A stretch of 64,000 bases of DNA from Vicugna vicugna (taxonomy: Eukaryota). Shown one piece after another: positions 10,987 through 61,749 of the stretch. A model generated the notes under the pieces. It was given only the letters and a program-made list of their open reading frames with translations. It did not search any database and was not told the DNA's origin. The stretch lies in contig MU057981.1 in the NCBI GenBank assembly GCA_013265495.1, positions 62,001-126,000 of the forward strand. Direction: 5' to 3'. The number at the start of each line of letters is the position of its first letter. Positions within the stretch are counted from its first letter, which is position 1. The translations under genes and the position numbers were made by a program.

Positions 10987-11515
10987 GCGCGGGCCGCCGG
11001 CGGGGCCGTGCGGGAGGAGGCACCCAGGCGGAGGGCCCGGATCCTTTTTAAGTTTTCTCCCGGCCACCGTTACTTGGAAGGGGAGTGTGTGTCTGTGTGT
11101 GTGGAGAGAGCTTGCAGGTCCCACTCCCCGACTCACCGCGGGCGATCACAGTTCCGGCCGAAAGGAGAAAGGAGATGAAGCTCCTGGCGGCTCGGCCCGT
11201 CCGGAAGCGGCGCCGCGCCCCTGCCGCCAGGCCCCGCGCCTGCTCCCCGTCCAGGTGCGGAGGCTGCAGGCGGGCCGCGGGGGAGGTGGGGGGCGAGCGA
11301 GCGGCCGGGCCCCCTAGGAGGCTGGCGGCGCGGAGGCCGCGGGCTACCGGGGTGACCCGAGCAGGGGACTTGAGTCATCCTAAGAGTGTGAGGGACGCGT
11401 CCTTCAAGCCTCGGAACCCGCAGCTTCGAGTCTTGGAAAAAGTGTTGGGCTCTGAGTTTTCTTGAGCGCTCGAAAGAAAAACCAGTAATTGCTGCGGGGG
11501 TTTTGGTCGTTTCGA
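10987..11515 (-). promoter_or_regulatory. CpG-island/promoter-like segment with putative first exon and splice donor
   Basis: Very GC- and CpG-rich. Contains an ETS-type CCGGAAG (11201-11207), TGAGTCA (11371-11377), a MYB-type CCGTTA (11067-11072) and a minus-strand donor GCG|GTGAGT (11136-11131). Confidence 0.6.
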
Positions 11516-12534
11516 TTGTATTTTAATTGCACTTTCCTAGAAGTTCTAGAACCAGAGCCAAAGACACTTTAATTCGGGGGAGGGGGCAGGAGAAGGAGAA
11601 ACTTCTGTTTCTATCTTGTTAAAGAAATGTTTGTTTAATTTCCCCCTAGGGGAAAAAAAAGTGTGTTAACACTCACATATTTCTCACAACGTAAGATATT
11701 TATTTAAACATGCTAGCGCTTTAATGTCCAAAACATGACGGCATTTTTCTGATCCCTGTCCAAAGTGTCCATCTCCCTGCCAGTTTCTTCCTTGAAACAA
11801 CTCTTACTCCCCAGAAAAATCATTTTTATTCTCTGTTTCCAGTATGAGCACTGTAGTTACAGTGAGAGCCTTAAAAAAAATAGCTTCTTTTAAGAAGTAC
11901 AGGCTTCTCTACAGATAAGATATTTTTGCCGGTTCCTTTCCCCTCACTCATCATTTTAAAATATCTGAAATATTGTAAATCAACTATACTTCAATTAAAA
12001 AACACCCTGAAATATTTGGGAGATAGCATCAATTCAAAATCTTTACCACGTCAAAAGCCAAAAGTACTTCTTACTAAATCAGAATTGAAGTATTTTCTCT
12101 CCATTGTCTATATTATTAAGAGAAGTAAATTAGGATTTTTAAAAACGGAGAGACTATAGTTTTAATTTCTTCAAGGGTAAGTAATAAGAAATCACTGAAC
12201 CTTAATACTTTACAGTAGTCCTCTTTAAGAAACTGTTTCCACACTAAATGTTAAAACAATTGGAGAAATGAGTTTAGCGCAATGGAGCCATTATTAAGTA
12301 AAATTCACTTCTCTTTGAAACCACTATGAAATGCAGGCCCAACAATTGCTTTTGAAATTATGTATTTTATACAAAAATATTTTTAGAAATGTATTTAATG
12401 AAATGCATATGTACATATTTTAATAGAAATACAATGCTTTATAAACTTATGGATATGATAAGTGTGAATAACTTGAGTCCAGGAACCAGTGGGTGGCAGA
12501 GAAGGTATAACAATACATCCTTGCACCAACCTTG

Positions 12535-12890
12535 AGGAGCTTTAACCTGAATCTAATCACGAGGAAGCATCAGACAAACACAAATAGAGGGAAATTCTAC
12601 AAAATAACTGGACTGTATTCTTAAAACATTGTCAGTGTCATAAAAGTAAGACAAAACTTGCAGATTAAAGGAAACTAAAGACATGACAACTAAATGCAAT
12701 ATGTGACCCTGGACTGAATACTGGAGGAGGAAAATGTTATAAAGGGCATTATTGGGATGATTGATGTCACTGGAATATGAACTGTAGTTTAAGTATGTTA
12801 TTCATGTTAAATTTCCAGAATGTGTTATGTATGAGAATATCCTTGTTCATAAGAAAACACACTGAAATATTAAAGGATAAAGGAACATTA
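12535..12890 (+). mobile_element. Old L1MC/ME-like 3' fragment inside the captured segment
   Basis: aacctgaatctaatcacgaggaagcatcagacaaac...taaatgcaatatgtgaccctggactg is typical of old L1M 3' UTRs. Confidence 0.65.
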
Positions 12891-15839
12891 AAAAGAAGAA
12901 TATATGCTAAACATTGGCACAGCCATTATGGAAAACAGTATGGAGATTCCTCAAAAAACAAAAAATAGGCTTACCATATGATCCAGCAATCCCACTCCTG
13001 GGCATATATCTGGAGAAAACTCTAATTCAAAAGGATACATGCACCCCAATGTTCATAGCGGCACTATATACAATAACCAAGACATAGAAACAACCTAAAT
13101 GTCCATCAACAGATGACTGGATAAAGAAGTTGTGGTATATTTATACAATAGAATGCTACTCAGCCATAAAAAATAATAAAATACTGCCATTTGCAGCAAC
13201 ATGGATGGATCTGAAGATCGTCATTCTAAGTGAAGCAAACCAGAAAAAGAAAGAAAACTACTGTATGGTATCATTCATATGTGGAATCTAAAAAAAAAAA
13301 AAAAAGAAGCAGCAGAAGGAAAAAGAGGATCACTAATGAACTCATCTACAAAACAGAAACAGACTTGCAGACATAGTAAACAACCATATGGTTACCTGGG
13401 GAAAGAGGGTGGGAAGGGATAAATCAGAGTTTGAGATTTGCAAATGTTAACCACTATATAAAAACAGATAAATAAACAAATTTCTTCTGTATGGCACATG
13501 GACCTATATTCATATCTTCTAATAACCTTTAAAGAAAAAGAATATGAAAACAAACTTATGTATATATATGCACGATGGGGATATGCTGTATACCAGAAAC
13601 TGACATGTTATAACTGATTATACTTCAATTTAAAAAATTAAACAAAAAAAATACTGAAGTACATTTAAGCAGAAACACACATAAGACAGACAATGTATTA
13701 ATCAGTTGACAAAAATGTTCAACTCTCATGAATTTGTCTCATGAGAACTTAACTGTAAATAATGAGGATCAACTATATACAACAGTTTTTATATGAATTT
13801 AAAAACAACTCAAAAATAATTTATAGAATAGGTGGATACAGATCAATCTAGGAATAATGTGAAAAGTATTGGTTAGATATATAATGAATTAATGATACTG
13901 TTGCCTCTAATAAATGAAGAGAGCAAACTGGCCTGGGAAAGGGAAGAGACAAGTTAAATTTTCATTGTAGTTAATTTTAAATGTAAAGTTGCTCTCATTT
14001 TACTTAAAAAAGATTGTAACCCACTAAAAAAAAATAAATAATGGTCAGTTATCTCGGATCCCATCTCTTGAGTTACAGATTCGCATTAGTTTTTTGGTCT
14101 TTGTCTTTTGGCCTGGGAAAGAACTCTTACAATCTGTCTTAGAAATCATTTATTTCATAATATTGACCATGTTTAGTCTGATAGGAGCACATTTCATCCT
14201 CACTGCATCTTAACCAAGCTCCTACAGCGTCTCTGTGATACAAGAACCCCCACTGCATGTGGTTCCCGGGACATGCCTTGCACCCTCCACTCCGCGGACT
14301 CAGGTCCCCTGCCTGCAGTGTCCTGCCTGACCGAACACAGCCCGGTCTGCAGATCTGGGCACAGTCATCCCCTCCCCCACACTCTACCTTTCTTTTTATT
14401 TTTAATAGCAAGTACCAATGCTCACTAAGCTTTTGCCTTATATTCTTTTGTATCATTCACATCCTTATATGAGTCTTATTTTTCCTATGAAATTTGAGAA
14501 AGTCCTTAAAGCCAGAGTCCAAAAGTCCTCTTCAATGAAACCTCTAACTTAATAGAAATTGGGTTTCTAGAAACATCTACAGACATTAAATATATGAAAA
14601 CTGAACAACATGTTTACATATTACAAGGTAATTCCATTCCCAGAAAGCTAAAATTTTCTATAAATTTCCAAAATCATTTCCAACAATTTGGACATAATAT
14701 TTGATAATATATTTGCTTGTATTTATGTTTTATTTTACTTTCATAAATTTATCTACAAGTGTAAGCATCATAAAAACACAAATGAAGCCAAAAATTTGCT
14801 GCTTTGGTTCCTTGCTTTACAAGGAGGTCCTTTTCTTTCTATACTTCTTTCCATCCTTCTTTCCATCTTATCCTTCCTAGGGATTCTTGGATTTATCATT
14901 TTGTTCCTTCTCTGAACTTCTTCCCACATCCCTCACCAAGAGGTTAAGAAGGACTCATCTTATTAGTGAGCTGTGGATACTGTCCTAAAAATCGCAATAT
15001 TGACCTGCCTTTCCCTCACCTTCTGCTCTGTCCGCAGCAGTCACCGGCCACGTCTTGCCCGGTGACCGCTGGTAACCATGTGTGAGAGCTGCCTTGCAGA
15101 TTCAACTTTGCCCACAATGTAGATAAGGAGGGTTATTAGATATCTTTTTCTTGTGTCACAGAAACAGTCTCTAATCCAACCTTAACAGGATAGAGATGCT
15201 TTGACCTTTAGAGGTTATTGGGAATCTAGCTACATCATTAATGATGCTCACACTATACTTTTATATTCTTATTTAATATTGGTCTATTATCAGTTATTAA
15301 AATTCCAAAAAGATAATAAGTATATACCCACCTCAACCCCCAACACATAACCTTTACTATGTCAGGGAGTGGTTAAAGGCCTGCCTGTGGGCTGAGCCGG
15401 CCCTGAATTCTAATCGCTGCTTTGATATGTGTTAATGTTATGCTTCTGTTTCCTCGGCTATCCATGGGAATAACCTGTTTTAAAGATTGTGAGGATTAAG
15501 TAAAACAATTTTTTGAACAGTGTCTTGCCTTCGATAAATGTTAGCCACTATGATTATTATCCCTATTTATTCCCTATTTTAATGGTTGCAGGCCATGCCC
15601 TAAGCCCTAGGGACAGAGATCTAAACTAGACCAAATTCATTCCATACTCACCTAGTGGCAGGTAGACTATACAGAGGTAAACACATCCATTAGTTAATTT
15701 CTTAAGTTTATTGCAAAAATATTTAATGGGCATCCAAGTATATACCAGGTTCTAAGTACTGCAGATGCTTCAGTAAGCAAGCAAAACAGACAGAAAGTAC
15801 TATCCAATTTCAAAAAAATAAAAAATAAGAAAAATGAAC

Positions 15840-15870
<31 letters not shown>

Positions 15871-17861
15871 TATCATTTTCTGATATATAAAGAAAAATTA
15901 AGTTGGAGAATAGAGAATGAAAAGTAGGGAATGAGAAGAGAATAGTTAGATTCATTATGTGCTCTAAATGTGGAAAGGACAGAAGGAAGTTCATGTAGAC
16001 AGAGTGTCTGGATCAAGAGTGAGAACACTCTGATATTGGGGTGAAGGGGTGGGCAGAAGCCAAACCAGGGAAAGCCTTGGAAGATTTAATAAGAGGTTTG
16101 TATTTTAAATTTAATAAAGAAATGTTAGGCATTTATAAGCAAGGACTTAACATGACCTGATGAAGCTTTTCAAAAAAGATCTCATTGTCTGAGAATAGAT
16201 CAAAAGGAGACAAGAGTGGAAGCAGAAGCAGCCAGGAGGCTGTTACAAGTCCAGGTGTGAGGTGGCAGTGGACTAGGGAGGTAAGAGTAAAGACTGCCAA
16301 CATGCTAGAGATATATAGGAGAAGAAAGATTACTTTCCTAAGGGCATAGCCTTGATACAGAATCCTAGGACGGTACCTGTTCCATTTTCTCTGTTGAAGT
16401 TGCTATGGGCTCCACATTTCATTCAAGGCCACAGGAGACATTTCCAATGTCACTGGGATAAATGTGCATAGTGGGAAAGTCACTTAGACTATAGCAACAA
16501 ACACCTAAGAAGGTGACTCTTCTTTGGAACACTTAAAACTGACAGATGGGACCTGGGTTATATATGTCTTACCAAGGGATACATGGACATAGGAAAAATT
16601 ATGGGAATATATATATATCAAGTTCATATGATTCCATAAAAAATTAATCTCTTGATGAGGCACCAAAATTCCTTTTCCATCTTCCCCACCCACCTCTGTG
16701 TGAGGGCCCTTTTCCATATTGTAAAACAAAGGCACACCTCTCACTAACCCTAAAGTTTACTATGCTTCCTTATTTCAAGGACACTAAAAAAAAGAGTCTG
16801 TTTCACATATTGTATCTGGGAAATATGTTTTAGTCTAGGAACCAGAAACCTATAGAAGGTTTCCCTGTACATATTTTGGCTAAAATCCAAGGATAGCATC
16901 ATAAATGTGATCTTTTTCATGGGTTGGTGTTATCTAAATTCACATATGGAGAGGATTGGTAGTAACAATGATGGCTTTTACTTAACAACCTCAAGTCTTC
17001 ACCCTCAGACCAAGGTCAAAAAAATAAAATCTTTTCCAAAGAGTGTACTGTGAAATTAAAACAAAGAAAGCATTGGCAAGAAATACGGTAGGTGACTTCA
17101 TCTGGATGACCAGCCCGCTGTTAAACCGTCTCCTGATTCCCTGCTTTTCCTTCTTCCCTTCCCTTGCCTTCTCTTCTCCTCCTTTTCTTCTTGTCTTCTC
17201 TGCTTTCCCTTCTTCTCTTCTACCATCTCTCCTTTCTTCTCCTTCTCCTCCTCCTCCTTTTTTCTGCTTCTCCCATCTTACAGTTAGAATTCTGAAGTGA
17301 CATGCTATTACCTAATAACATATTCATTTGAGAGTGATTAATAGTGTGCACTAGTTTTTGTTATTAGGTTACATGAACGTGTTTAGGACTTCATAGGCAC
17401 CAATTAGCAGCAAGGTGACTCAATTAAATAGAATGATGCCAGCCTGCCGGCAGGACATGTGAGAAGCAATTAAATATCTGCTTTATATGGTTTTTTTTTC
17501 ATATATTGACTAAACTAAGAATATATTTCTGAAGTTTTGAGGAAAATATATCTGATGCACTTGGTAATATGAAAAGTTTCTAAAAATATTTTGTTGTAAA
17601 GAATGTTTTGAAATGAATAAATTTTGCAATTTTCTTAACTTTTTCTGACTATTTTGGGTTGAAATAAAGTGCATCTAGGTGAAAAAAACAAAGGTATATA
17701 ACCAGTAGTCATTTTAACCATTTTTAATTCTTTGTATTTCTCTCCAAAATTCAGAAATTGAGCTATTGTAGTAATTGACATTTCAAAAAAATATATATCC
17801 TTTAGCAAACAATGATATTTCTAATTATTTGTTGTTAACAACATTGAAAGAGGCATAATTG

Positions 17862-19535
17862 CTCCTTTCTCCCTCTCAGAACCTTCCTGCCACTGCATTT
17901 GGACCTCACTACTCCAGCCTCTGGGGCCCATCCCATCCTTCCAGCCTGTGACCAGCAGCAGAAAAAAACAAATTACATATCATTTTCTTGCCCTGTACAC
18001 ACCTTGAAGTGAGCAAAAAGATTAGAATAACTTTTAACCATAGGGAAATTGTGCACATCCAGGGAGGTCAGTGTAGCAACCAGATCGGTGCCAAGTTCTG
18101 GGAGGTGATCGGTGATGGACATGGCAGTGACTGCACCGGCACCTATCATGGGTCAGCTGGACTGCATCTCTGTGTACTACAGTAAAGCCACAGATGTTAA
18201 ATATGCTCCTCGTGCTATCTTGGTGGATCTAGAACCCAGGACCATGGACTCTGTTCACTCAGGTCCTTTTGATCAGATCTTCAGACCAGACAACTTTGTT
18301 TTTTGTCAGTCTGGTGCAGGCAACAACTGGGCCAAGGGCCACTACACAGAGAGGGCCGAGCTGGTTGATTTGGTCTTGAAAGTGGTTCGAAAGGAGGCCA
18401 AGAGCTGTGACTATCTACAGGGCTTCTAGCAGACCCACTTGTTGGGCAGGGGTATGGGCTCTAGGACGGGCACCTTGCTCATCAGCAAGATCCATGAAGA
18501 GCATCCTGACCACATCATGAACACCTTCAGTGTGGTGCTGTCACCCAAGTTGTCTGACACTGTGATGGAGCTCTACAACGCCACCCTCTCCATCCATCAG
18601 TTGGTGGAGAACACCACCGAGACCTACTGCATTGACAATGAGGCCCTTTAGACATCTGCTTCTGCACCCTTAAGCTGACCATGCCAACCTACAGGAACCT
18701 GAACCACCTCGTCTCAGCCACCAAGAGTGGTGTCACCACCTGCCTTCACTTTCCTGGTCAGCTCAATGCTGACCTCCACAAGCTGGCAGTCAACATGGTG
18801 CCCTTCCCACATCTCCACTTCTTCATGTCCAGTTTTGCCCCTCTCACCAGCCGTGGCAGCCAGCATCATCAGGCCCTCACTGTGCCCGAGTTCACAAAGC
18901 AGGTCTTCAATACCAAGAACATGATGGCTGCCTGTGGCCCCTGCCATGGCCGGCACCTCACCATGTCTGCTGTCTTCCATGAGTGATGTCAATGAAGGAG
19001 GTGGATCAGCAGATGCTCAAAGTGCAGAACAAGAATAGCAGCTACTTCATGGAATGGATCCCCAACAATGTCAAGACAGCCATTTGTGACATTCCACCCC
19101 GTGGCCTCAAGTTGGTGGTCACTTTCGTTGGCAACAGCACGGCCGTCCAGGAGCTGGTCAAGTGCATCTTGGATTAGTACACTTCATGTTCCATGGAAAG
19201 CATCCCTCCACTGTTACACAGGTGAGGATGTGGACAAGATGGAGTTCCCCAAAGCTGAGAGTAACATGAAAGACCTCATCTCCGAGTACCAGCGGTACTA
19301 CCAGGATGCCAGCGCAGAAGAGGAGGAGGATTTCGGTGAGGAGGCCGAAGGCTGAGCCCCGTCGCTGCACGTTTCTCAGTCCCCTCAGCCTTCTTCCTCA
19401 ATCACCCCTTTCCCTCAGAATTTGCATTTTCTACCTCTATCTTGTTTTTCCTTATTTTGGGAGTGTTGGTTCTAGAACAGTGCCTGCACATAATAGATGT
19501 TCAATAAATATTTGTTGTTTGTTGGAAAAAAAAAA
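17862..19535 (+). pseudogene. TUBB: Processed pseudogene of beta-tubulin class I (TUBB/TUBB5)
   Basis: Intronless beta-tubulin ([33 protein letters not shown]) with the class I tail [11 protein letters not shown] and a TUBB-like 5' UTR. The start codon is damaged (ccATAGGG) and there are stops and frameshifts. AATAAA at 19503-19508, an A-tail, and TSD gaggcataattg (17850-17861 / 19537-19548). Confidence 0.97.
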
Positions 19536-20449
19536 GGAGGCATAATTGAATTGCCTGGTGATGTATAATTAGGAATAAATTTTGATAGCATTTGGTCTTT
19601 TTGGTTTTGAGGGCTTATATTTCAGAAGGGTTTTAAAAAACTCATTGATATTACAACAAAAAAATTCCTTCAATTCCATCTTGTTATTATGAGTAATGTT
19701 TCTCTGCACAAAAAAAAAATGAAAAAGGAAAACCCCACTGAGTCATAAGATTAATGTTGAGCCTTGTCTCAATTTTACAAGTGCTTTTCTTCTACAGATA
19801 CCTAAACTTATTAGAAAGAAATGCCCTCTTTCTATTGCTAAGAGATTATTTTAAAATTAAATTATACATTGTATGTTTCATAATTTCTCAAAGTCCCCAA
19901 TATGTTTGTGTCATTTGGTCAGCTGTCTGTTAGTTATAATTGTTACAATGAGACCGATGGGCTGCCTACTGCACTAAGTAGACAAGTAATTATAATTGTT
20001 ATGATGACTACATAGAAGGAATTGTTTGTGGCTCAGAGTCTTATTATCACAGGATTTTTTTCCTTTAATTTATTGAAATATTTCTGTAGCAGAAAAGCAT
20101 AAGAATGTGATTAATAAGTTGTTTAGGCTTAAAAGATATTATATTAGAATTCAATTATCTAAGGGAAGCAGTATAAAGTTACAAGTCCAAGGAGAATATG
20201 GAGAGATGTAAAACTTGTGACTGCTGAAGAAAACTTTTTCCATGCATTTTTGTAAATAATTGATGGTGGGTATCAAGTTACTTTGGTATTTTGATTTCAT
20301 GCACTACATTTAAAAAGAAGCATGTAATTTTTTTTAATTTTTATTTTTGAAATGTCATTATTTACAACTCACTAGGAATTGTATCAATGGTAACTTTTTA
20401 AACTCATGATAGAACTATTCAAATTTGTTAGGGTACATGAGCAAAAATG

Positions 20450-20801
20450 AGAAAAAGAAAGAAGAAGAAGAAGGAGAAGGAGAAGGAGAAGAAGAAAGGA
20501 AGAAGAAGAAGAAGAAGAAGAGAGAAGAAGAAGAAGAAGAAGAAGAAGAAGAAAGAAGAAGAAGAAGGAAGAAGAAGAAGAAAGAAGAAGAAGAAGGAAG
20601 AAGAAGAAGAAAGAAGAAGAAGAAGGAAGAAGAAGAAGAAAGAAGAAGAAGAAGGAAGAAGAAGAAGAAAGAAGAAGAAGAAGGAAGAAGAAGAAGAAAG
20701 AAGAAGAAGAAGGAAGAAGAAGAAGAAAGAAGAAGAAGAAGGAAGAAGAAGAAGAAAGAAGAAGAAGAAGGAAGAAGAAGAAGAAAGAAGAAGAAGAAGG
20801 C
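20450..20801. repeat. Polypurine GAA-derived repeat with a 29-nt higher-order unit
   Basis: The unit (GAA)4-G-(GAA)5-A repeats about 8 times. All ORFs called here are repeat artefacts. Confidence 0.95.
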
Positions 20802-22152: not shown

Positions 22153-23190
22153 CTATTTATTTATTTATTTGTTTGTGTATGTATGTATGTATTTATTTAT
22201 TTCTATATATAAATTAACCACTTTATTGAATATTAATAAACCATACATATAACTATACAAAATGCTTCCTTAGTATAAAATGTTGCTTGCAAAATAAATA
22301 CCAGTGTGCCTTTAAAAATGTAAACATCTTCCTCCTGGGCCCACCTGCCGGGCCCCAGAAGTAGTTCCAGGAGATACACCAGTGGGGAGGAAACCCCCAC
22401 TTGGGCCCCCGGCAAGTGAAGGCAGTCACTCACAGTCCCTTTTGCGACGTTGTTAAATTGCCCATGAAACAGGTGCCCATGACAAACAGGAGGGTGAAAT
22501 AGCTGCCCAGGCCCTGGGGCATCCTGGGGACTAGATGCTGTCCTGGTGTCAGTGACCATCCCCGCAGGCCCTGTGGGTGCACCTGAGGTAGACAATTGCA
22601 TAGTCAGTCACACCTCCTGGAGGGGTGGCCTGAGGGTCCCCTCAGTTGGGGAATAATTTCTTATAAGTCTGACATCTTTTGTCCTGGAGCTCAAAGCAGC
22701 TGTATCCAACAGCTTTGGATACACAAACTCACACAGAAAGGCCAACTCCGGAATGCTTGGGAGCGGCGACCACCAGGAGGGGTCTCTGATGCCAGCCACC
22801 GTCCCATCAGCTGTCCACAGAAAGGCCTCTCTCAGAGCCCAATGAGACACCCAAGTGGATGACTGGGAACTGGTCCTCAGAGTCCTGTGGGGCCCAATGC
22901 AGCCAGAAGGTGGAGCTCAGAAGGGAATTCTGTGGCAGTGAGAAGGATGTGGGTAACTTCCTTCTGGAGCTGGGGGAGGCTGCAGTCAGGGGAGGGTCTT
23001 GAGAGTCAGAAGGAGCCTTAAGAGTTATTGGGGGCCCCCTGAGCAGCCCGACTCTTGGTGCTTGTAGAGCAGGGACATTCGGGAGAAGGTTCTGGAGCAT
23101 CTTGCACTGGTACTCCTTGACATCTGAGTGGGTCTGGAGATGGGCCCGCAGGTTGGAGCGGTCGGTGAAGGTGCGGCTGCATTGGGAAAG
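22153..23190 (-). pseudogene. SNAI1: 5'-truncated SNAI1 (Snail) retrocopy: last zinc fingers plus full 3' UTR
   Basis: The minus strand reads CSRTFTDRSNLRAHLQTHSDVKEYQCK..CSRTFSRMSLLYKHQESGCSG, the SNAI1 C-terminus. A SNAI1-like 3' UTR follows, with AATAAA (tttatt 22222-22227), a decayed A-tail (ttta)n and TSD aaagctcta (22144-22152 / 23191-23199). Confidence 0.93.
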
Positions 23191-25042: not shown

Positions 25043-25962
25043 CCCAAGTGGAGAAATGCACGCCAGGCGGTCCGTGCGCCAGGTGGTCCGGCCAGGCTTC
25101 CTGGCCGCCCGGCGATCCCGATCCATCCGGCGTGCTCACCTGCTGATTGCTGAGGGTCACCTGCCTGTCGGCCTCTTTTTAGACCCTGCAAAGACATTGA
25201 TCGGATGGCCCGGCTGGTCCAGGCTGGTCCAGGCTGGGTCTTTTTCAGTAGACCTCGTCCCGAGGGACTGAATCTAGTTCCCTGCGCTGTGCGGTAGGAC
25301 TTTGGGGTGGAATCTGCCAGGATAGGACTTACAAAGATTTGGAGGATCCTGGAGAGGTGCTACCATCCAGAATTCTACAAGGACATTCAAGATATTGTGG
25401 ACAGACAGATGGATGGAAGACAGATCGAATGGAGGCCCCATTCCCTGGACCCGTTGGCCTAGAAGGATCGTGGTCAGTCTGGAAAAAACTCTTCCGACGA
25501 GGGTCTTGGAATGGAGTTTCTTGATCCGCGGAAGGTGTTTCTGCACAAAGAGGGGCGTTCTCGGCTTGAGAGCCCAAACCACTGCAGTTCAGCGATCCAC
25601 CCCGGTCAGGGCCAGGGTCAGAACTCAACTGACAGCTCCCCTCCCTCGTCTTGGGCATCCAACTTGGGAAACCCTCCTCCCTGCCCAAGAGAGGAAAGCC
25701 AAAAAGCTCCCCCTCACCCATCTTCTCCTCAGCCTGCCTCCAGCTTCCCCATGCCAATGACCTCATTCATGCTGCCGTACTTTGCTCCCTTTTGGGCCAC
25801 CAGGAAGCCTCCCCACCTTGGATCGGAATCCCTGACAAAAACAAATAGTGCTCCGGGGTACGGGTGGGGTGGTAGAAGGACTCTCTTCTCATGGGAGTGA
25901 TTTTTTACCTCCATAGAGGTGACAAGTTGAGAAAACACATAGAAACACCCAGAATAATAAAC
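25043..25962 (+). other. Unidentified TSD-flanked, GC-rich retroposed-looking insert
   Basis: Abrupt GC/CpG-rich block in AT-rich DNA. Direct repeat aaactggccca at 25032-25042 and 25963-25973, with AATAAA at 25956-25961. Contains ATG ORF 25511-25900 (129 aa). Confidence 0.6.
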
Positions 25963-27419: not shown

Positions 27420-27424
<5 letters not shown>

Positions 27425-28854: not shown

Positions 28855-30780
28855 CTGTGGGAAACAAAGACTCTGCTCTTAAAGGGCACATGCAAAATAC
28901 ACATGCTTTAACACCCAGCTCAGAGATGATAATTTGGAAAGAACCTGAGTCAGACCCACTTCCTGACCTTGGAGAGACTCCCAGAGACTGGAGGTCCTGG
29001 GATTCCTCCTGGGGACACAGAGGCTTGTGGCAGCATTCTGGGGTGCTTGTTCTATGACAGTGATACTGGTGCTGCTAAGTGCCTTTTTAAAGCCCCCTCT
29101 CTAGCCTATTAGCACCTGACAGAGGCGTACCTACCCAACAGCTGGCCAGTCTTGGGAACACCAGTCCCAGCAGCAATCAATGCCATTGCCTGGCCACAAC
29201 AGCCAGTGGTCCAGCCTCAGCCCTGGATCTTCCTGGCTTATGAACCAGCCATAGCAGGAGCCAACCCCGCTCACCAGCAACTGGAAGCCTTCGCACAGGT
29301 TAGCGCCTGGCAACCAACAGGCTGAGGGCCAGCCCCATCTACCAATGTGTGACAATCAGCCCACACAGAGGACACTCCAGATCACACAACTCTGGGAAAC
29401 AGAGAGAAGTGTGCTGCTGGGCCCCACGTAAGACTCCTTTTCCTATGTAAGTCCACTTCTCCAAGATTGGGGAACATAAATGACCTACCTAATACATACC
29501 AAAAAAAAAAAAAATACAGAGACTTATGCAAAATGAGGTGAAAGAGGGATATAAAATATAAAAATAAGACCCCAGGAGAACAAGGAAAAGTGGAGATAAG
29601 CAATCGGCCTGGACAAAAGTTCAAGGTAATGATCATAAAAATGCTTATTGAACTCAGAAGAAGAACAGAAGAACACAGTGAGACATTTAACAAGAGTTCA
29701 AAAATATTTAAAAAATCAAACAGAGCTGAAGAATACAATGAATAAAAAATACAAAGGAAGAAATTAACAGTAAATTAGATGATACAGAGGAATAGATCAG
29801 CCAACTGGAAGACAGAGTAATGGAAAATACCCAAGCTTAAACAAACAAAAAAAACTTTTAAAAATGAGGACAGTTTAAGATACTTCTGGGACAACATCAA
29901 GCATTCGCAGTGTAGGGAATCTCAGGAGAGGAAAGAGAGAAAGAGGGAGAGAACTTATTTAAAGTGATGATAGATGAAAATTTCTCCCACATGGGAAAGG
30001 AAATAGACACTCAAGACCAGAAAAAAATGGAACCCCAAACTAGATCAACCCAAAGAAATTCACAGCAAGGCATATTGTCATTAAAATGGCAAAATTTAAA
30101 GATAAAGAAAACAAATAAATCAATTTAAAAGCAGTGTTGACTGAAATATATGTGCAGCCAAAAAGTTAAGAGTTATGTTTTATTTGATGGGAAGACTTGA
30201 GCCAGGATGACAGCCTCTCAGAACTCTCTGAGGGACTGCTCCCAAGAGGTAGGGGAGGAGCTAGGATATACAGGTGCTTTGCAACAAAGACCAGGTGCTT
30301 GGAACAACAGAAGATTGCTTGGTATCTAAAGAGAACCAGGCATCTCAAGTTCAAGAATTTAGTGCTTTTCTATGTATGGGAGGAAGCAGACATTTGGGCT
30401 CATTGAATCCATTCCTTTGTCAAGCACGTAGCTATCTAGGGCCAGTATCCTGTCCTTTCCTATTCTGAGTCCGCTCAGAGGGCACCACTGTGAAGGGCTG
30501 CAGAGGCTGGGCTGCAGGCATGTCCTCACTGGCGGGTGGTGGCAGCCGCTGATGACTTGGTTTCAGCATTCTTTGTTTACTGATATGTTTGCAGTATTTT
30601 CATTCACATTGCAGTAATTTCGTTCACAGCAGAAAGTCAAAAGCAGCCAGTTATGTAAAAGAGAAATTACATAAGACTCTCAATTAACTTTTTAGCAGAA
30701 ATTTTGCAGGTCAGAAGGCATAATACATTTAAAGTGATGAAAGAAAAAAATATATATATAACCAAGAATACCTGACTGGA
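28855..30780 (+). mobile_element. L1 5' UTR plus ORF1 fragment, interrupted by a solo LTR
   Basis: GC-richer 5' UTR followed by A-rich ORF1-like text (gagataagcaatcggcctggacaaaagttcaaggtaatgatcataaaaatgc). It resumes after the LTR. Confidence 0.8.
30135..30628 (-). mobile_element. Solo ERV LTR (ERV1-like)
   Basis: TG...CA termini with 4-bp TSD gcag (30131-30134 / 30629-30632). Minus-strand AATAAA near 30180. Confidence 0.85.
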
Positions 30781-35722: not shown

Positions 35723-35763
<41 letters not shown>

Positions 35764-36918: not shown

Positions 36919-37085
36919 GGGGAGGAGGGTATAGCTCAGTGGTAGAGCACATGCTTAGCATGCACAAGGTCCTGGGTTCAATTCTGGGTACCTTCTCTGA
37001 AAATAATAATTAAATATACCTAATTACCTCCTCTTCCCTAAATAAATAAATAAATAAATAAACAAATAAATAAATAAATAAAGGA
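36919..37085 (+). mobile_element. tRNA-derived SINE (camelid Vic-1-like)
   Basis: A box tagctcagtgg, B box ggttcaattc, (taaa)n tail and TSD aacatagtctt (36908-36918 / 37086-37096). Confidence 0.9.
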
Positions 37086-42846: not shown

Positions 42847-42877
<31 letters not shown>

Positions 42878-43280
42878 CAAAATGTCAAACTAATTTTATA
42901 AAAAAGCAGTTGTTAGTAATATCACAACAGTGTTTTTAGAGTTTAGGGTTTAAAATAAAACATGTTATATAGAAGCAATTAGGATTTTTTGCTTGCGAGC
43001 AAAGGAATGTATATACTAAATGCCACACTGCATGTTTCTAACACACTATTATTATTAAAAAAAAGTGTGAATATCAGTTTTAGAATAGTTTCTCTGGTGA
43101 ATGAAATGGTGTTTCTGAAACTGCTATGCACAACCTATCCTGTGTATATCATTTCGTACAATATTATTGCTTTACTTTTCAGCAAATATGAAAAAATTTG
43201 GTTTATTTCATGGGAGTAAAATATACTACATACAAAAAAAACAAAAACCAAAAACAAACAAACAAAAAAGAAAACCCAAA
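41776..43280 (+). pseudogene. PITX2: 5'-truncated processed copy of PITX2
   Basis: EKDKSHQGKNED, then a decayed homeobox with the intron absent (EARVQIWFKN contiguous), CKNGFGPQ, and OAR-like [17 protein letters not shown]2-like 3' UTR, AGTAAA and A-rich tail follow. TSD aaaaggacttg (41765-41775 / 43281-43291). Confidence 0.95.
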
Positions 43281-43905: not shown

Positions 43906-46900
43906 AGCCCAGCATAAGTAAAACAAACCCCTTAAAGACAGGCACATTAGGAAAATTAGCATTGGAATGGTTAAAAACCTGCTCACCTGGTTAAGATTTG
44001 AGAAAGAACTTGAAGCCGTCTTTCTAATTCAGAAGATACACTCTGTCTGCTGTACCAAATTACCTCTGTGATCAATATCTAAACAAAAAGTCTTTTAATC
44101 ACTGAAATTTTCACTAGAGTTAAAATAGTATACACCTGAGATTTCATGCATAATTTTATATATGTATTCAATAACTTTACATATATTAATGGACACCTAC
44201 CGTATGTGCCATTTTCTATTCCAGTAACAATAAATGGTAGATCTTGTTCTCACTGGGAAAATACCCTTGATATTTCAGAAATCAATGATCATTATTTGTA
44301 TAATGACTGACTATATAATCTTAAGTGCTGCCCATTACAAAGAAGTGGAAAAATCAAAGTTAGAGTCAGATAGATTCAAATTCAAATCCTAACATAGTGG
44401 TAATGATCAATGCATTTAACTCCTCTGGGTTGGGGCTACTCATCATAGACTATTATTTTAAAGACCCAATTAGAGAATAGTGATCAGATATCTCTTTCTG
44501 AATGTCCTCATGTGGACTGAATTGCCTGCTCCTGGAGGAAAATAATGATTTAAAAGACTCAACTCATAGTAAAGGAGCAACTTCTCCCCAAGAGTTTAAT
44601 TTTAAAAGATAATGCTCTACCTGTCCCCTCCCCTAACCAGCCCTGCCCAAGGGAAAGTACAATGGGGAACCCTTATGTCTAAGGGATGACTTTGTCATGC
44701 AAAACGTTTTTTGAAATCACCATTTACCTTACAGCAGTGCTTGACACACTGAGACGCAGTTCACAATGACACAAGATACATTCTGGAGAACAGGCATTAG
44801 TGGGAACTTTTATAAAGCTAGCATTAACAAAAAGAAGAGGCAAATCACTTCTTGTATCTCTGTATAGCTGGGGAGATAAATTCTAGAACCAGGGTATTCT
44901 GTTGCTCATGCTGTGGGTTGTTTCAGGAAGGGGAGAAATTTTGCTTCTATGTAGCTCTGTTCTCATGGAACAAATCTGAAGGCAACTTTGCCAGTGAAGA
45001 AAAAACCGGGGTACTTGGACACCAGCAGTCTGTGTTTAGATGCCAGCTTTTTGCAAGAACTGTATAGTAAAGCCAAATTCAGGAGACCCTTAGGCCTGGA
45101 GAATATTGAAGCTTCAGCCAGAGCAAGTGATTGGTCTTATGAAAAGTTCAGTACAAGTGTGGCCCCCTCCAGCCAGATGTGTGGGGGTGTTCAGACCCCT
45201 GATACCTCATTGCCTAGGATCTCCAAGTTAGTTACCAGAGGTAATTTAGAGAATTAAATTTGTTGCATCACAGACATAGTTTCAAGCATCAGATGCATGG
45301 CATCTGAGCCAATGTTGTACAAGATACCTTCAAAAATCTTACACCACCACCGAATAAGCAAGTATTTCTTTCACTGCCACACACAGCCTTCAGGCTGTCT
45401 GTGTACAAGAGGCTGTAATCTGAACAAGGGCAACTTATGAGCCCACTCAGTTACTACTGTTCACTTTAGAAAAATACAGTGAGGGAGTGTTTATTTACTT
45501 ATTCATTCACTTATAAACCAAATATCTTCCCAAATATTTACAATGCCATGCATGGAAATAGCCACTGGGGATACAAAGGTAGACAAAACATCTCTGATTA
45601 TGAAGTAAAAAAGTTTAACATGCATGGCATATATATCTGGAGGTCAAACTGAACATGAATTAAAGTATTGTTTGAAAATCAGTAGACCTTAGACCCCATC
45701 AAAGAACATAAGCATTAGTATATATTAAAATTTTATAGCATATTTGGCTGTTTAAATTAAGTTTCAGTGGTATATGGTGGCCCTAAAACTAGATAGAACA
45801 GCATATACCTATTTAGCGCTCTTTCTATCCATCTCTTCAAGGAATGTGTAATACATTTTATTAAATCAGTCCTAAATATCTTGATTACTGATTATGTTTT
45901 CAGTAATGCCATATTTTGAGTTAGTTTTCAGTTTTATATTACCAGAATTCTACTAATATAAGATAATATAAGACTTTCTGGTAGAATAAATGGTATCATT
46001 TCTTAAGGGTCAACAATTAATTCAGTTGCCCAGTAAACAAAACGATTACCAGTTGTCCCGTTCTGTTTTTAGAGACCTCATTGGAAGTCCTTCAGCTCTA
46101 CATTATGGTCAGCCTGTGGACTGAGGCCATATATTCCATATGGAACAGCAGGCGACATTCAGCTCCATTGAAATCAGAACCCATATAGTTCAGGCTCAAA
46201 GTACTTCTTTGGTTGAAAAAAAATAGTCCATTGATTAAAACATAAGTTTGAAAACAATATAATTCTTTGCACATGTTACTGAAACATAGTGAAGGGGATA
46301 TGCAGTCCTCATTTGAAAATCTCATTCTTTTTGCATTTATTTCTTTTACTCCTGGTGCCTCTTTCTTCATGACTTCCCCCCACCCCCCAAAAAATAGTCC
46401 TAATTAGCTCTAGGCCATGTACATCTTAACTTTATATTGGTCTCTCTCTCTCTTTTTTACTACTCTACTATAATTTTATTTCCCTTCCCCTACTTTCTCA
46501 ATGTTTTGTACCTCTGTTTAAAAGGAAAATGAAAGATACAGTTAGCAATGATAGAAAATGACTGGATGGGAGTCGGGGTAGGTGGAAGGATAAAGGAGGC
46601 AAATTTGAGCCTAGTCTGGATGTCAGAGGAAGAAAGACGGGGGCCACTCATGGATACTACTGGTCCACAATAGAACATGTATTTTTAAAGGCTTTTAGAA
46701 ATGTTTGCATTTGACGAAGGATTTTAGAAATAGCATTGGACAAATGTTTGATAGCATTTAAAATTTACAGGTGTGGCTGAATGACTAATAAAACTCTGTA
46801 AATTTTTCTCAGTTCACTGCTGGTTGGTTTGAAATTTTTCCAGTTCATATTAAATGATTGTTGCTCTGACTTTTGCTATCATCAGACTTTCTACCACCCA

Positions 46901-50098: not shown

Positions 50099-50099
50099 C

Positions 50100-50135: not shown

Positions 50136-50138
<3 letters not shown>

Positions 50139-55085: not shown

Positions 55086-57610
55086 CTTTTAGCTGCATTA
55101 TATGATAGTTCTATGTTTAATTTTTTTGAGGAATATCCATACTCTTTTCCAGACAATGACTGCAAAAGTTTACATTTCCATTAATGAAGCACAAAAGTGT
55201 TCTTTTCCATTACATCCTAGCCAACACTCATCTCCCCTATTTTATAGTAGCTATTCTAACAGGTAAGAGGTGATAAATAAGATTTCTTATTGTGGTTTTG
55301 ATTTGCATTTCCCTGATGATTAATGATGTTTCTTTTTAGAGGCTTCAAATCTGGGCAATTTGTATGTAGTCTTTGGAAAAAAATGGCTATTCAGTTCCTC
55401 TGGCATCTTAAAAACAGATTATTTTATTTGCATTTGAATTATATGAGTTCCATATATATTTTGGATATTAAACCCTTATCAGATACATGCTTTTCAAAAA
55501 TTTTCTCCCATTCATAGTTTGCCTTTTACTTTTTTGGTTGTATCATTGTGCAGGCTTTTTTTTTTTTTTTAAATATATAGCCTCCTTATTTATTCCTGTT
55601 TTTGTTGCCTTTCCTTTTGGTGTCATATCCAAAAGAATCACTGGCAATACTGAAGTCAAAAAGCTTTCTCTTTCTTTTATTTTAGAAATTTTAGAGTTTC
55701 ATGTCATATATAAGTATTTAATCCATTGCAAGTTCATTTTGGAGTGGTATAATATAGGGCTTTGATTTTATTCTTTTATATCCAATTATCCAGTTTTCTC
55801 TACACCATTGATTGAATAGACTATCTTTCCCCACTAAGTAAACTTGGCTCCACTGTCAAATATTACTTGATCACATATGAGAGGATTTCTTTCTGAGTTC
55901 TCCATTCTGTTCCATTGGCCTATGTGGCCAGTACCACAGTATTTCAAATAGTACAGTTTTTAAATACTGTTTGAAAGAAAGTGTGATGCCTTCAGCTTTG
56001 TTCTTCTTTCATGATTGCTTTGGCTATTCAGGTCTTTTGTGGCTCCACACCAACTTTAGGATTTTTTTTTTCTGTTTCAGTGAAACACGCCATTGGAATT
56101 TTTGATAAAGGGTTTATTGAATCTATAGATGACTGGATAGTATGAGCATTTTAACAATATTATTTCTTCCAATCCATCAACACAAGGTATCTTTCCATTT
56201 ATTTGTGTCTTTTTCAGATGACTCACTGTTAGGGTATAAAAATGCAGTTGATTCTGTGTGCTGACTTTCAACTCTGCAATTTTAACATTTGTTTATTAGT
56301 ACTAATTGTCTTTTGGTGGGATCTTTATGATTTTTATATATGAGATAATATCATCTGCAAACAAAGCCAGTTTACTTCTTTCTTTCCAATTCAGGTCCTT
56401 TTTTCTTTCCTAATTGTTCTGACTAGGATTTGGCTTCCTTGTACTTACCCTATCTGACGTTAGTATTGAGATTATGCTGGCCTTATTAAATGAGTTTGGG
56501 AATGTTCACTCCACTTTATTTTTTTAAAGTTTCAGAAGAATTGGTGTTAATTCTTCTTTAAAGTTTTGATAGAATTCACCAGTGAAGACATCTGGTCCTG
56601 GACTTCTCTTTGTTGGGAGATCTTTAATGATGATTAAGTTTCCTTAGTCATTATTATTCTGTTTAGATTTTTTTGTTTCTTCATGGTTTAATCTTGGTTG
56701 ATTGTATGATTCCAGGAATCTATCCATTTCTTCTAGCTTAACAAGCTTGTTGGTGTATAACTCTCATAGTCTCTTATGATCATTGCAGTTCTGTGGTATT
56801 ATTATAATGCCTCTTCTTTCATTGTTGATTTTATTTATCTGAGTCTTCTCTCTCTCTTTTTAGTTATTATACTTAAAGTTTTGTCAATTTAAGAAATATT
56901 TTCAATTAAGCCAGATCTTAGTTTCATTGATCCTTTCTATTTTTTTCTGGTCTCTTACTTTTGCTATGATCTTTTTTATTTCTTTTCTTCTGCTAAATTT
57001 GTGCTTAGCTTGTTACTTTTTTTTTTCTTGGTCCTTTATGATGAAAGTTAAGTTTGTTAATTTGAGGTCTTGTTTCTTGATGTAGACATTTATTGTAATA
57101 AGCTTCTCTCTTACAATTGCTTTTACTGCATCCTACAGGTTTTATTATGTTGAGTTTCCATTGTCATTTCTTTCAATATATGTTTTAATTTCTATTTTTG
57201 TTTTTTCTTCTACCCAGAAATGTGTTTCTTCTGTTCAGGAGTCTTATTTAATTTTCACATGTTTGGACTTTTCTAGTTTACTTTATATTACTGGATTCTA
57301 GTCCTATACAGTTGTGCTCAGAAAATATGGTATGATTTCAATCTTATTAAATTTTCTAAGAGTGATTTTGTGTGTATATGCCACATCTTTATTCATTCGT
57401 CTGTTGATGGACCCTTAGGTTGCTTCTGTATCTTGGCTATTGTAAATACTGCTACTGTGAACATTGGGATGCATGTATCTTTTCAGTTTAGTATTTTTGT
57501 TTTTTCAGATATATACCCAGGAATGGAGTTGCTGGATCATATGGTTTTTGTTTGTTTGTTTTTGTTTTAAATCTCCATGCAACTTTCCACAGTGGCTACA
57601 CCAATTTACA

Positions 57611-58847
57611 GCCACTCTGGAGTAAGATTCTTCCAATCCTGCTGTGGCTCCCTGGTGGCTCAGGTGGCTTCTTCAGGCTGCAGGGTGGGTCTGAGATGAC
57701 CCTGCAGAGTAACACAAGCTGAGCTTCCCCTGCCGGGCCGGGCCCAGGGCGCAGCACTGGGGAACGTTCCTGCGGTCTTGGAGCTGGGTCCGCCCCTGGC
57801 AGCAAGGCACAGACTGTGGGCCTCAGGGCTCCTGGAGGTCAGGCAGGTCAGCCAGCAGCATGGGGGCGTCCATCTGGATCTCACGCTGCAGGGACTCCAC
57901 GTCTGCAGGGATCATGCCTTGGCCCTCAAGCCAGCCAGCAAGCAGGGAGGCCAAGAGCGGGAGAGTTGGCCTGGCCGTCCTGGGGCCCGTCAGCCACGCA
58001 CATGCCAAAAAATTGGCTTAGGAATTCCTCCAGGTCAAAGCAGACACCCTAGCCAGCCTCACTGCCCGCTGGTGCACCCGAGAACACAGGGGCAGGGGGT
58101 CCTCCACCTGCGACTTGGACCGCTGCTGGGTCACTAGGTTGACGTCGGCTGACTCTGAGGCGGAGGGCTGAGGGGGCCCCCGGGATCTGGACAGGGTGGG
58201 CCAGAGGGGAAGCAAGGCAGAACATTCAGGGCGCCGGGGCCCGGCAGCCCGCGGTGGGGCCAGGAGGCCGGAGGTGGTGGTGGTCGGGGGAGGGGGGGCA
58301 GGTGCAGGCCTGGGGGGCCGAGGGTCGGTCAGACAGGCAGAGGGCTGGGATGGGGGGTCGCGGGTGCAGGGGCAGGGGGCCGGGCCATGTGAGTCCAGCG
58401 CTCCCGCAGACGTCGGTCATTGTGGCTGAGCACCAGCCCCGCCAGAGGGTCGGGCCCCACGCTTCTGGCGCTCCGGCTCCTGCCGCCGCCGCGGCTTCCC
58501 GCGCCGCTCCCGCTGGCGCTCCTGGGCCGTCACCGGCTTCCTAGGCTCAGAGGCTTCCAGAGGGGCCCTGGGGCCACCTCGGAGCCGGCTCCTCAAAGAC
58601 TTGAGCAGGGCCGGCCTTGAGGGCTGCCTTGGTGTTGTCTGAGATGGCCCCCTCCCTCTTCGGATGGGTGGTTCACTGGCGGGAGGGGTAGGGGTTAGGG
58701 GGGTGGGGGGCTGCAGTGTAAGATCAATGGTATCAGGAAGGGGGCGTGGAGGTGGGGCTGGCGAAGGAGGGTGGAACTCCATGGCGCAGTCCTCACTGGG
58801 GCCCCGTGGACTGGGCATCTCAATGTGGAGGCAGTAGATTCACTGGC
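57611..58847 (-). pseudogene. MAPK7: Spliced fragment of MAPK7 (ERK5): C-terminal region plus partial 3' UTR
   Basis: Minus-strand translations IDLTLQPP, ALLKSLRSRLR, PRKPVTAQERQRE, DVNLVTQQRSKSQVEDPLP and SLQREIQMDAPMLLADLPDLQEP* match ERK5. No introns, several frameshifts, no polyA and no TSD. Confidence 0.93.
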
Positions 58848-59319
58848 CAGTGTGTGAGGGGGTCCCTTTTCTCCACATCCTCATCAACATTCATTATTTG
58901 TGTTCTTTTTAATAACAGCCATTCTGACAGATGTGAGGTGATACCTCATTGTGGTTTTGATTTGCATTTCCCTGATGTTAGTGACGTTGATCATCTTTTC
59001 AAGTGCCTGTTGGCCATTTGCGTGTCTTCTTTGGGAAAAAAAAAAAGTCTATTCATATCTTGTGCTCATTTTTTAATTGTTTTTTGAATTTTGAGTTGTA
59101 TGAGCTGCTTGTATATTTTGCATATTAACCCCTTATAGGTCATATCACTTGCAAATATTTTCTCCTATTCAGTATTGTCCTTTGGTTTTGTTGGTGGTCA
59201 TCTTTTCTGTGCAGAAGCCTTTAATTAGATCTCATTTGCTTATTTTTGCCTTTATTTCCTCTGCTTTAAGAAGCAGATAAAAATAATTGCTATGATTTAT
59301 GTTAAACAATAGTCTGCCT

Positions 59320-60164
59320 TTTCTGCCCGCTCCCCCCTTCCCGCAAGCACCGCTCCAGCGGCACCACTCTCACTCGGATCTCCAGCTAAGAGAGCGCCAC
59401 CGTTGTCTCCCTCCAGCCGCCATCATGATCACCTACCGGGGCCTCATCAGCCATAATGAGATATTCTCCGAAATCTACAAGATCCGGGAGGTTGCGGAGG
59501 GCTGTGTCTGGAGGTGGAGGGGAAGATGGTCAGTAGGACAGAGGGTAACATTGATGACTCGCTCATTGGTGGAAATGCCTCCGCTGAAGGCCCCGAGGGC
59601 GAAGGTACCGAAAGCACAGTAATCACTGGTGTCGATATTGTCATGAACCATCACTTGCAGGAAACCAGCTTCACAAAACAAGCCTACAAAAAGTACATCA
59701 AAGATTACATGAAGTCAATCAAAGGGAAACTTGAACAGTGACCAGAAAGAGTAAAACCTTTTATGACAGGGGCTGCAGAACAAATCAAGCACATCCTTGA
59801 TAATTTCAGAAACTATCAGTTCTTTATTAGTGAAAACATGAATCCAGATAGCATGGTGGCTTTGCTGGACTACCGTGAGAATGGTGTGACCCCATATATG
59901 ATTTTCTTTAAGGATGGTTTAGAAATGGAAAAATGTAAACAAATTTGGCTGTTACTTTGGGTCTATCACCTGTCGTCATAACTGGCTGGCCACTGCTTTC
60001 ATCCACACAACATCACGACTTAAAAGACAAATGGAACTGATGCCATCTTGAGCTTCATTTATTTTGATGTTGATTTATTTGGAATGGAGGCATTGTTTTT
60101 GAGAAAAAAAACGTGTAGGTTGTCTAAAAATAAAATGCATTTAAATTTAAAAAAATAAAAAAAG
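59320..60164 (+). pseudogene. TPT1: Full-length processed pseudogene of TPT1 (TCTP)
   Basis: Pyrimidine-rich 5' end and ATG at 59425 ([20 protein letters not shown]...[20 protein letters not shown]...[11 protein letters not shown]), with a frameshift and a stop. AATAAA, A-tail and TSD aatagtctgcct (59308-59319 / 60165-60176). Confidence 0.97.
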
Positions 60165-61749
60165 AATAGTCTGCCTATGATTTCCTCTAGTAGTTTTATG
60201 AATTCTCTTCTTACATTAGGTTTTTAATCTACTTTTTTTTTTGGATTTGGTGTTAAGAGAATATTATAATATCATTCTTTTACAGGTAGCAGTCCAGTTT
60301 CCCAGCACCACTTATTGCAGAGACTGTCTTTTTCCATTGTATATTCTTGTTTCCTTTGTCAAAGATTAGTTGACTGTGGGTGTGTGGGTTTATTTCTGGG
60401 CTCTCTATTCTGTTCTGTTGATCTGTGTGTCTGTTTTTGTGCCAGTTTTAAACTGTTTTGATTACTGTAGCTTTATAGCAAAATTTGAAGTCAGGGAGTG
60501 TGATTCCTCTAACTCTATTCTTTCTCAAGATTGTTTTGGCTATTCAGGATCCTTGCATTTCCATACAAATTTTAAAATTATTCTAATTCTCTGAAAATGG
60601 CATGGAATATTACTTAGCCATAAAAAGAATGAAATTTTGCCATTTGCAACAACATGGGTGGACTTGGAGGGTTTTATGGTAAGTGAAACCCAGACAGAGA
60701 AATACAAATGCTATACAATATTACTTATATGTGAAATCTGAAAATACAATAAATTGATGAAGACAATGAGAAAGAATCAGACTCACAGATATAGAGAACT
60801 AGCAGTTACCAGTGGGAACAGGGATGGGGGAAAGGACAGTATAAGGGTAGAGGATTAAGAGGTACAAACTATTATGTATAAAATAAGCTACAAGGATATA
60901 TTGTATGATGCAGGAAATATAGTTAATATTTTATAATAACCACAGAGTATAGCCTTTACACATTTTAAATCACTATGTTGTACACCTGTAATTTATGTAA
61001 TATTGTGCATCAACTATACTTCAACTGAAAAAATGAGGCTGAGTTGTAAAAGAAATAAGACTATAACATCAATCTGGAGAAAGTTTTGTTTTGTGTGTGT
61101 TTGACAAGAATGTTCATTCTACTTGTGTTGAAAGGAATGTTCTCTTTATATTTGTTAGGTCAGCTTGATCTAAAGTATAGTTCAAGTCCAGTATTTCCTT
61201 ACTGCTTTTCTGTCTTGATGATTTATTCATTATTGAAAGTGAAGTATTGAAGTAAAAGAAATTATGGTCTGAAATGATCTCTCTTGGCCCTGAACAGTGC
61301 CACCTTGGGGAAGGGTTGATGTGGATCAAGTCAAAATTTTCCTCTATCTCCAATGCATCCACACTCATACATTTTTGTTCTGACAGTGTGCTGGGACTTC
61401 TCCATTCAAAGCCTGGACTTCCAGATAGGCTCTTTCATGTGTGAGTGATTATCTGAGACAGGGCTCTTCAGGGTCTCCTGGATCATGGCTGGGAGGAACT
61501 GGAGGTAGTTTATGGACCACTTCAGGGTCAACAGCCAAGATCAAGGTCTGCAAGCCTATTCATCAATGTGCAGGTGGGCAAGGCTCCTCCTGGGTCCCAT
61601 GGCATATGGTGCTGGATCCCACAACTCCCTCAAGGCACTTTAGTGTGTAAATAGATGCTAAATTTTTGTTGTTTGGAAGGAGGCATGAACAACTATGTCT
61701 TATTCAGCCATATCTTTGTGATGTCACCTTTCTTCACTTCGTTTTATCC

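Follow-up and report, generated by a model that had tools for sequence, protein, structure and literature searches.

A striking but apparently ordinary pile of six decayed RNA copies within 42 kb of a Vicugna vicugna contig

Decayed copies of cellular RNAs that have lost their introns, end in an A tail, and lie between short target-site duplications are made by L1 target-primed reverse transcription. Here, we analyzed a window of 64,000 nucleotides from Vicugna vicugna (assembly GCA_013265495.1, contig MU057981.1, positions 62,001–126,000; coordinates below count from the first base of this window), in which six RNA-derived inserts lie at 17862–60160, a span of 42,299 bp. Like mammalian L1 retrocopies in general, they are for the most part spliced, A-tailed, 5′-truncated and decayed, with 11–16-bp duplications at A-rich sites, and two of them have typical housekeeping parents (TUBB and TPT1). 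Unlike them, there are six in 42 kb, the MAPK7 copy has no tail or duplication, the SNAI1 copy contains no exon junction, and one insert appears to derive from a partly unspliced, lineage-specific transcript. The original prediction had likened this tract to a PIWI-interacting RNA (piRNA) cluster. The closest described loci of that kind are piC-as(Spin1) and piC-as(Ago2) of the mouse and piC-as(GOLGA2) of primates, with which the tract shares an intergenic-looking setting, a promoter-like island, and processed fragments, some of them antisense to either possible transcript (bioRxiv 2025.11.05.686807). Those clusters owe their definition to piRNA measurements, and each has a single dominant target to which its identity is high (>90% for Spin1), whereas the present tract is known from DNA alone, its inserts have mixed orientations, and the majority of its copies are old. 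The pseudogenes of primate piRNA clusters, like those here, decay neutrally and have no significant orientation bias; in contrast, the primate clusters are gene-rich, GC-richer and L1-poorer, and their pseudogenes, which are not under selection, lean to the unprocessed type (PMC6461890), whereas the present tract has 36% GC and holds RNA-derived copies only.

The six inserts of the original prediction, their strands, and their extent of about 42 kb were all borne out by Pfam, PDB and protein matches; two of them have their closest relatives in Camelus records, which marks the DNA as camelid. They are listed here together with the L1 that holds two of them:

17862–19533, plus strand: TUBB processed pseudogene, apparently full-length, with an A tail (Pfam match; PDB beta-tubulin, E 1.5e-82)
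22153–23188, minus strand: 5′-truncated SNAI1 copy with the last zinc fingers, the 3′ untranslated region (UTR) and a degenerate A tail (match to PDB 3W5K)
25043–25960, plus strand: copy of a LOC family (matches to uncharacterized LOC models of Camelus ferus and Camelus bactrianus)
41776–43276, plus strand: PITX2 processed pseudogene, 5′-truncated and spliced, with an A-rich tail and a 15-bp duplication (protein match, contiguous through the homeodomain)
57370–61030, minus arm at about 57370–60597 and plus-strand 3′ end at 60598–61030: host L1 with a 5′ inversion, holding the next two copies (self-BLAST positions meet at the inversion point)
57611–58847, minus strand: spliced MAPK7 fragment with the C-terminal half and part of the 3′ UTR (protein match)
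59320–60160, plus strand: TPT1 processed pseudogene, young and apparently full-length, with an A tail and a 16-bp duplication (protein match)

Target-site duplications, each with one mismatch and located at A-rich sites, flanked five of the six inserts (TUBB, 15 bp; SNAI1, 11 bp; LOC-family copy, 13 bp; PITX2, 15 bp; TPT1, 16 bp), the exception being MAPK7. Among 400 random pairs of 60-bp zones, a duplication of at least 11 bp was found in 12, of 13 bp in 1 and of 15 bp in none; the SNAI1 duplication is therefore weak by itself. A 3′ poly(A) remnant was present in the TUBB, SNAI1, PITX2 and TPT1 copies, nearly absent from the LOC-family copy, and absent from MAPK7. Parental introns were missing from four of the six (TUBB, TPT1, PITX2 and MAPK7), as judged from contiguous protein alignments and, for MAPK7, from comparison with an intron-retaining model, where the intron positions in the TUBB, TPT1 and PITX2 parents are those we assume. 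All five coding copies (TUBB, SNAI1, PITX2, MAPK7 and TPT1) are disabled by stops or frameshifts. Their divergence is staggered, with 5–23% amino-acid change (about 8/147 residues in TPT1, 40/222 conserved columns in MAPK7, 31/165 residues in TUBB and 11/48 in the PITX2 homeodomain; all of these except the MAPK7 figure were counted by hand on alignments), and the coding copies evidently differ in age. Because the local duplications are intact, each of the five duplication-flanked inserts landed in its present flanks. The six inserts are thus, by all appearances, decayed RNA copies, and most carry the hallmarks of L1-mediated processed pseudogenes.

On this evidence we lean, at slightly better than even confidence, toward a neutral pile-up of retrocopies in an unconstrained, permissive tract, likely helped by GC islands that are unmethylated in the germ line. 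The L1 machinery would have made the copies by target-primed reverse transcription, as their hallmarks suggest; a tract apparently free of constraint would let them persist; and A-rich L1 targets may have raised local insertion. If the GC islands (the CpG island at 11 kb and, later, the MAPK7 copy) were unmethylated in the germ line, subsequent insertions, TPT1 among them, would fall next to these islands more frequently. The five duplications, the splicing of four copies, their staggered divergence and the nesting of two copies in one L1 support this reading, as do an AT-rich, CpG-depleted background and the occurrence of inserts and L1 remnants on both strands. The unmasked DNA to the right of the island (28,114 bases under a hand-drawn mask) had a GC content of 35.6% and a CpG observed/expected ratio (o/e) of 0.13. 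Its combined T–A plus G–C strand skew was 0.010 (95% interval, −0.020 to 0.049); there is therefore no sign of long-term germline transcription. Furthermore, polymorphic retrocopies in human show a 2.0-fold enrichment in regions hypomethylated in sperm (PMC5510864).

The MAPK7 copy bears on the part proposed for GC islands. Its CpG o/e (57611–58847) was 0.45, compared with 0.55 in the PITX2 copy (42076–42525) and 0.24 in TUBB. Of 24 polarized changes in the MAPK7 copy, 13 were from A/T to G/C and 11 were the reverse, where 29% would be expected at background GC (p = 0.008); a looser filter gave 15 vs 10, and 16 other differences were uninformative or ambiguous. The TUBB copy had 4 A/T-to-G/C changes vs 21 in reverse (hand count; Fisher p = 0.007 vs MAPK7). 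This pattern fits what would be expected if the MAPK7 copy had become an unmethylated, recombining island with GC-biased conversion. It resembles the PRDM9-independent hotspots described at hypomethylated CpG islands (PMC11161765), in that the copy keeps CpG and gains G/C, and differs from them in resting on only 24 polarized changes, read from the sequence. The words “camel” and “alpaca” were not found in the main text of that source.

Several points weigh against this favored account. The PITX2 copy had no clear GC bias (14 vs 15, p = 0.24), and the probability that TPT1 would come to lie within 0.5 kb of one of five earlier inserts by chance is 0.08, which is not significant. Codons within two of an indel were dropped, but misalignment may remain. 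A twofold effect of accessibility cannot by itself account for a 12- to 47-fold excess, and the study of human polymorphic retrocopies reports no basic preference for insertion into L1 (PMC5510864). How large the excess is depends on assumed, non-camelid densities; the apparent lack of function is read from DNA, not RNA; and the absent strand skew is compatible with transcription confined to meiosis, which it does not exclude.

The insert density, about 94 per Mb over the 64-kb window, was compared with assumed genome-wide densities of 2–8 per Mb (2–4 for catalogue-type copies, that is, spliced copies of coding parents, and 4–8 for a broad count, neither being a camelid baseline) in a genome that we take to be 2.1 Gb. 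Under a Poisson distribution at 4–8 per Mb, six broad copies are expected in 0.01–0.5 windows per genome, and six within 42.3 kb in 0.005–0.5 sliding runs per genome; a six-copy window among 146 windows has a chance of at most 0.002 at 8 per Mb. Given the expectation of 0.01–0.5 windows at these assumed densities, this is an extreme-tail window, and a degree of regional excess is probable, although no special mechanism is required. The suggestion that the locus preferentially captures or retains cDNA therefore holds to the extent that six copies in 64 kb, beyond Poisson expectation at the assumed 4–8 per Mb, support unusual local capture or retention. That there is no local cause at all, and that the window was simply singled out post hoc from the high end of a genome-wide distribution that is ordinary and overdispersed, seems to us unlikely. 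This explanation draws on the four catalogue-type copies (TUBB, PITX2, MAPK7 and TPT1), which are expected in 0.3–5 fixed windows or 2–6 sliding runs per genome at 2–4 per Mb, and on a negative-binomial spread (k = 1–2, assumed), under which six copies are expected in 0.4–50 windows at 4–8 per Mb; at 12 per Mb, six are expected in about 5 windows. However, the Poisson figures tell against it, the overdispersion value was assumed, and overdispersion itself implies regional causes. Literature searches turned up no described retrocopy hotspot, in camelids or otherwise, no density null, and no earlier account of this locus, although the literature searched was mostly open-access and this is weak evidence of absence. 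Retrocopy totals of about 8,000 in great apes and 16,000 in sloths have been given (bioRxiv 2026.06.26.734816); the main texts searched contained no camelid count, which the per-species supplement of that source may hold.

A larger regional cause, such as a sex chromosome or a duplicated, pseudogene-rich camelid block that retained copies or assembled them by segmental duplication, is likewise improbable. In its favor, the L1 to the left of the CpG island breaks off abruptly, as at a rearrangement junction, the parent family of the LOC copy is spread over several camel contigs, and processed pseudogenes co-localize with segmental duplications in human (PMC5510864). Against it, no internal duplication was found beyond L1 copies and simple repeats among the largest repeats (20 of 50 direct families and 25 of 145 inverted pairs), none of the scan windows compared was a look-alike, and the intact local duplications place five inserts in their present flanks from the start. 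No gene that could anchor synteny was found in Pfam, PDB and other searches of the window’s reading frames.

Also doubtful is the reading closest to the original prediction. Here the tract would be a germline piRNA cluster with the CpG island as its promoter, mRNA copies would be captured or retained in it, and transcription of the plus strand would produce piRNAs antisense to SNAI1 and MAPK7. The island and its left neighbor are as follows:

8871–10986, plus strand: old L1 remnant of open reading frame 2, whose recognizable sequence ends at the island (RVT_1 match; 67% identical to the L1 at 34801–40045)
10987–11520 (534 bp), no strand assigned: promoter-like CpG island (54 CpG, GC 0.67, o/e 0.92)
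11067–11072, no strand assigned: single MYB-type hexamer CCGTTA (exact word in 11%, and its YAACKG class in 52%, of 500 dinucleotide shuffles)

The extreme insert density would suit such a cluster. Pseudogenes are enriched in primate piRNA clusters (PMC6461890), and a processed Spin1 fragment flanked by target-site duplications drives silencing from a mouse cluster (bioRxiv 2025.11.05.686807). By computation, 29–52% of 20-nt stretches still pair with at most one mismatch at 8–12% divergence, and age therefore does not rule out targeting. The promoter evidence is divided: in the mouse, 18 of 100 pachytene promoters belong to the high-CG class, and bidirectional ones are common, but 82 of 100 have low or intermediate CG (PMC7782496), and with an o/e of 0.92, measured on the island itself rather than in the promoter window of that study, the present island would belong to the minority class. 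The original prediction had also pointed to a MYB-type motif. The island is real and holds one CCGTTA, but the motif is at chance level; the whole window contains 78 words of the class YAACKG, which we take to be the MYB consensus. Splice-donor-like words in the island (11252 on the plus strand and 11139 on the minus strand, by motif only) would suggest short first exons, which also tells against this reading. Pachytene clusters are autosomal and give rise to abundant 26–30-nt piRNAs in spermatocytes; their promoters are bound by A-MYB, and their long precursors are either unspliced or have a first exon of at least 10 kb. Orientation is mixed (four plus and two minus, p = 0.69), with no antisense bias among inserts or L1s. 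Two of the six inserts would be antisense to a plus-strand precursor and four of the six to a minus-strand one, and TPT1 is the only copy that has stayed near its parent in sequence. A plus-strand precursor would include a 5.2-kb L1 in sense orientation, the strand skew is absent, and the copies are processed or RNA-derived rather than unprocessed. The background (36% GC and 23% L1-like DNA, as absolute values) appears to run opposite to the primate trend. In a promoter-hijacking model for new clusters, antisense mobile elements lie downstream of a host gene (PMC13252550); neither an antisense bias nor a host gene was seen here. Unusual retention or capture thus stands from the original prediction, and its piRNA-cluster interpretation drew no support from any of the sequence tests run (MYB word, island CG, orientation, skew and background). 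More improbable still is a cluster whose open state would be maintained by unmethylated GC islands, in part borne by retrocopies, and which would have trapped six RNAs in succession and would silence several parents, with SNAI1 and MAPK7 targeted from the plus strand, although, if true, its multi-target silencing would go beyond the one-cluster–one-target pairs of mouse and primates.

The origin of the island admits several accounts. The original prediction had called it imported, which is one possibility but was not demonstrated, the island adjoining a broken L1. In the junction alignment, L1 sequence gives way to GC-rich sequence after 10986. Such a boundary may mark a rearrangement, a native promoter next to which DNA was deleted, or L1 sequence rewritten toward G/C. 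By eye, the left edge (10987–11200) looks as though the adjacent L1 ran on into it with numerous A-to-G substitutions. A shuffle test of a G/C-rewritten L1 gave 8/2000 against one of three L1 copies, and 644/2000 and 238/2000 against the others; in position controls, the likeness was not significant compared with other L1 positions. One 24-base pattern from the island had no match in metagenome contigs; of six frames, two were tested, a minus-strand frame having no relatives among 1.84 billion representatives and a plus-strand frame no useful Atlas match; and no look-alike for the island was found among the scan windows compared. The retained CpGs would imply either recent arrival or a germline-unmethylated state. 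For the stretch from the island to the first insert (10987–17840), six large data sets (one species label, two studies) held 0.74–0.82 of sampled words, and it is therefore real DNA, although one of the studies may be the source of the assembly. Among the 20 matches listed in a run search of this stretch, 8 RNA or probable-RNA entries held 0.05–0.12 of 701 words, which says nothing on transcription or on tissue.

The individual copies differ in what they preserve. The TUBB copy, with duplication arms at 17847–17861 and 19534–19548, aligned without gaps to beta-tubulin residues 43–207. The SNAI1 copy has one frameshift and includes no exon junction; it starts within what we take to be the last exon, and its splicing is therefore not demonstrable. 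The LOC-family copy, which the original prediction had left as an unknown, now has an apparent parent family: its relatives are LOC116661759, LOC116662557, LOC116660598 and C. bactrianus models, a multi-copy group spread over several large contigs. The match starts at an exon start of the spliced models, and the insert, which has an AATAAA signal, almost no tail and a 13-bp duplication, retains the splice acceptor and about 200 bp upstream; its template was therefore likely an RNA that was only partly spliced or had an alternative start. The spliced transcripts of the parent family are annotated as uncharacterized proteins and are camelid-restricted as far as searched; the family is probably non-coding. 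A “hypothetical protein” of C. ferus (P0086) and the PITX2 copy have 26 derived residues in common and differ at 10, over 109 columns. It is evidently the same copy, and the insertion is therefore older than the split of both lineages.

The MAPK7 fragment, which had no PDB match, runs past the point at which the intron-retaining model P0013 diverges, and this is the evidence for its splicing. The fragment is flanked by L1 at both ends and points the same way as the L1 arm around it, from which about 10 bp were lost; the TPT1 copy lies 473 bp away in the same arm. The host L1 itself may have acquired its 5′ inversion by twin priming. In its orientation and in having no tail or duplication of its own, the MAPK7 copy resembles the LINE-1/mRNA chimeras that arise by template switching or twin priming (PMC13174262), and it differs from them in its location within an L1 that continues to either side of it and lacks about 10 bp. 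Because of this position and loss, a later tail-less insertion fits as well as a template switch during L1 insertion. The original prediction had further stressed that three parents are low-abundance regulators. SNAI1, PITX2 and MAPK7 are indeed less common donors than TUBB and TPT1, but the point is a weak one, as a processed pseudogene of SNAI1 is known in human (PMC4237825).

The surrounding DNA had been described as gene-free and packed with transposable elements. Self-BLAST revealed L1 remnants on both strands, including one of 5.2 kb on the plus strand; however, L1-like DNA made up 23% of the window, and 54% lay outside a hand mask of L1, long terminal repeats (LTRs), inserts and microsatellites, including old relics of the short interspersed element (SINE) type seen by eye, so that “packed” was an overstatement. 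Names for older repeats (MIR, L2 and LTR-like pieces) were assigned by eye and are presumptive. Among 356 stop-to-stop frames of at least 55 amino acids, Pfam detected retrocopy and L1 domains and three weak matches below the cut-off; there is no Pfam-detectable gene among them, but short exons would be missed. Coding-looking decayed stretches at 3600–4050, 34380–34810 and 44800–45450, considered as a seventh retrocopy, had no Pfam match, and one frame each from the first two had no PDB match. A scan for tails plus duplications picked up TUBB and TPT1 and, besides these, just one L1 and a pair that is likely due to chance; it was insensitive and missed SNAI1, PITX2 and the LOC copy. Two elements break up the long L1 at 34801–40045, namely a tRNA-derived SINE (13-bp duplication, 36908/37086) and an opposite L1 at 38294–39062; the sole Rfam match was a tRNA-Ala-derived SINE at 36925. 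Further nested insertions lie at 10565–10650, 30130–30610 and 32409–33076. At 4035–4088 on the plus strand, a hydrophobic frame between acceptor-like and donor-like words is, by eye, a possible small exon. An interrupted GAA-type purine tract of about 360 bp with a higher-order period of 29 bp occupies 20443–20800. Small CpG-retaining patches at 14200–14400 and 14950–15070, in CpG-poor DNA 3–4 kb to the right of the island, are possible regulatory elements.

The tract is thus a striking but ordinary pseudogene pile, and a candidate locus for asking why retrocopies clump. Its six inserts are of different ages and have recognizable empty-site junctions, and the genomes of camel, alpaca, pig and cattle could be used to order the events; the same cross-species comparison could show whether CpG-rich copies attract later insertions. 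A literature search turned up no dedicated piRNA-cluster study in camelids, and if testis small RNA were found to map here, the tract would represent a multi-target piRNA locus in this family.

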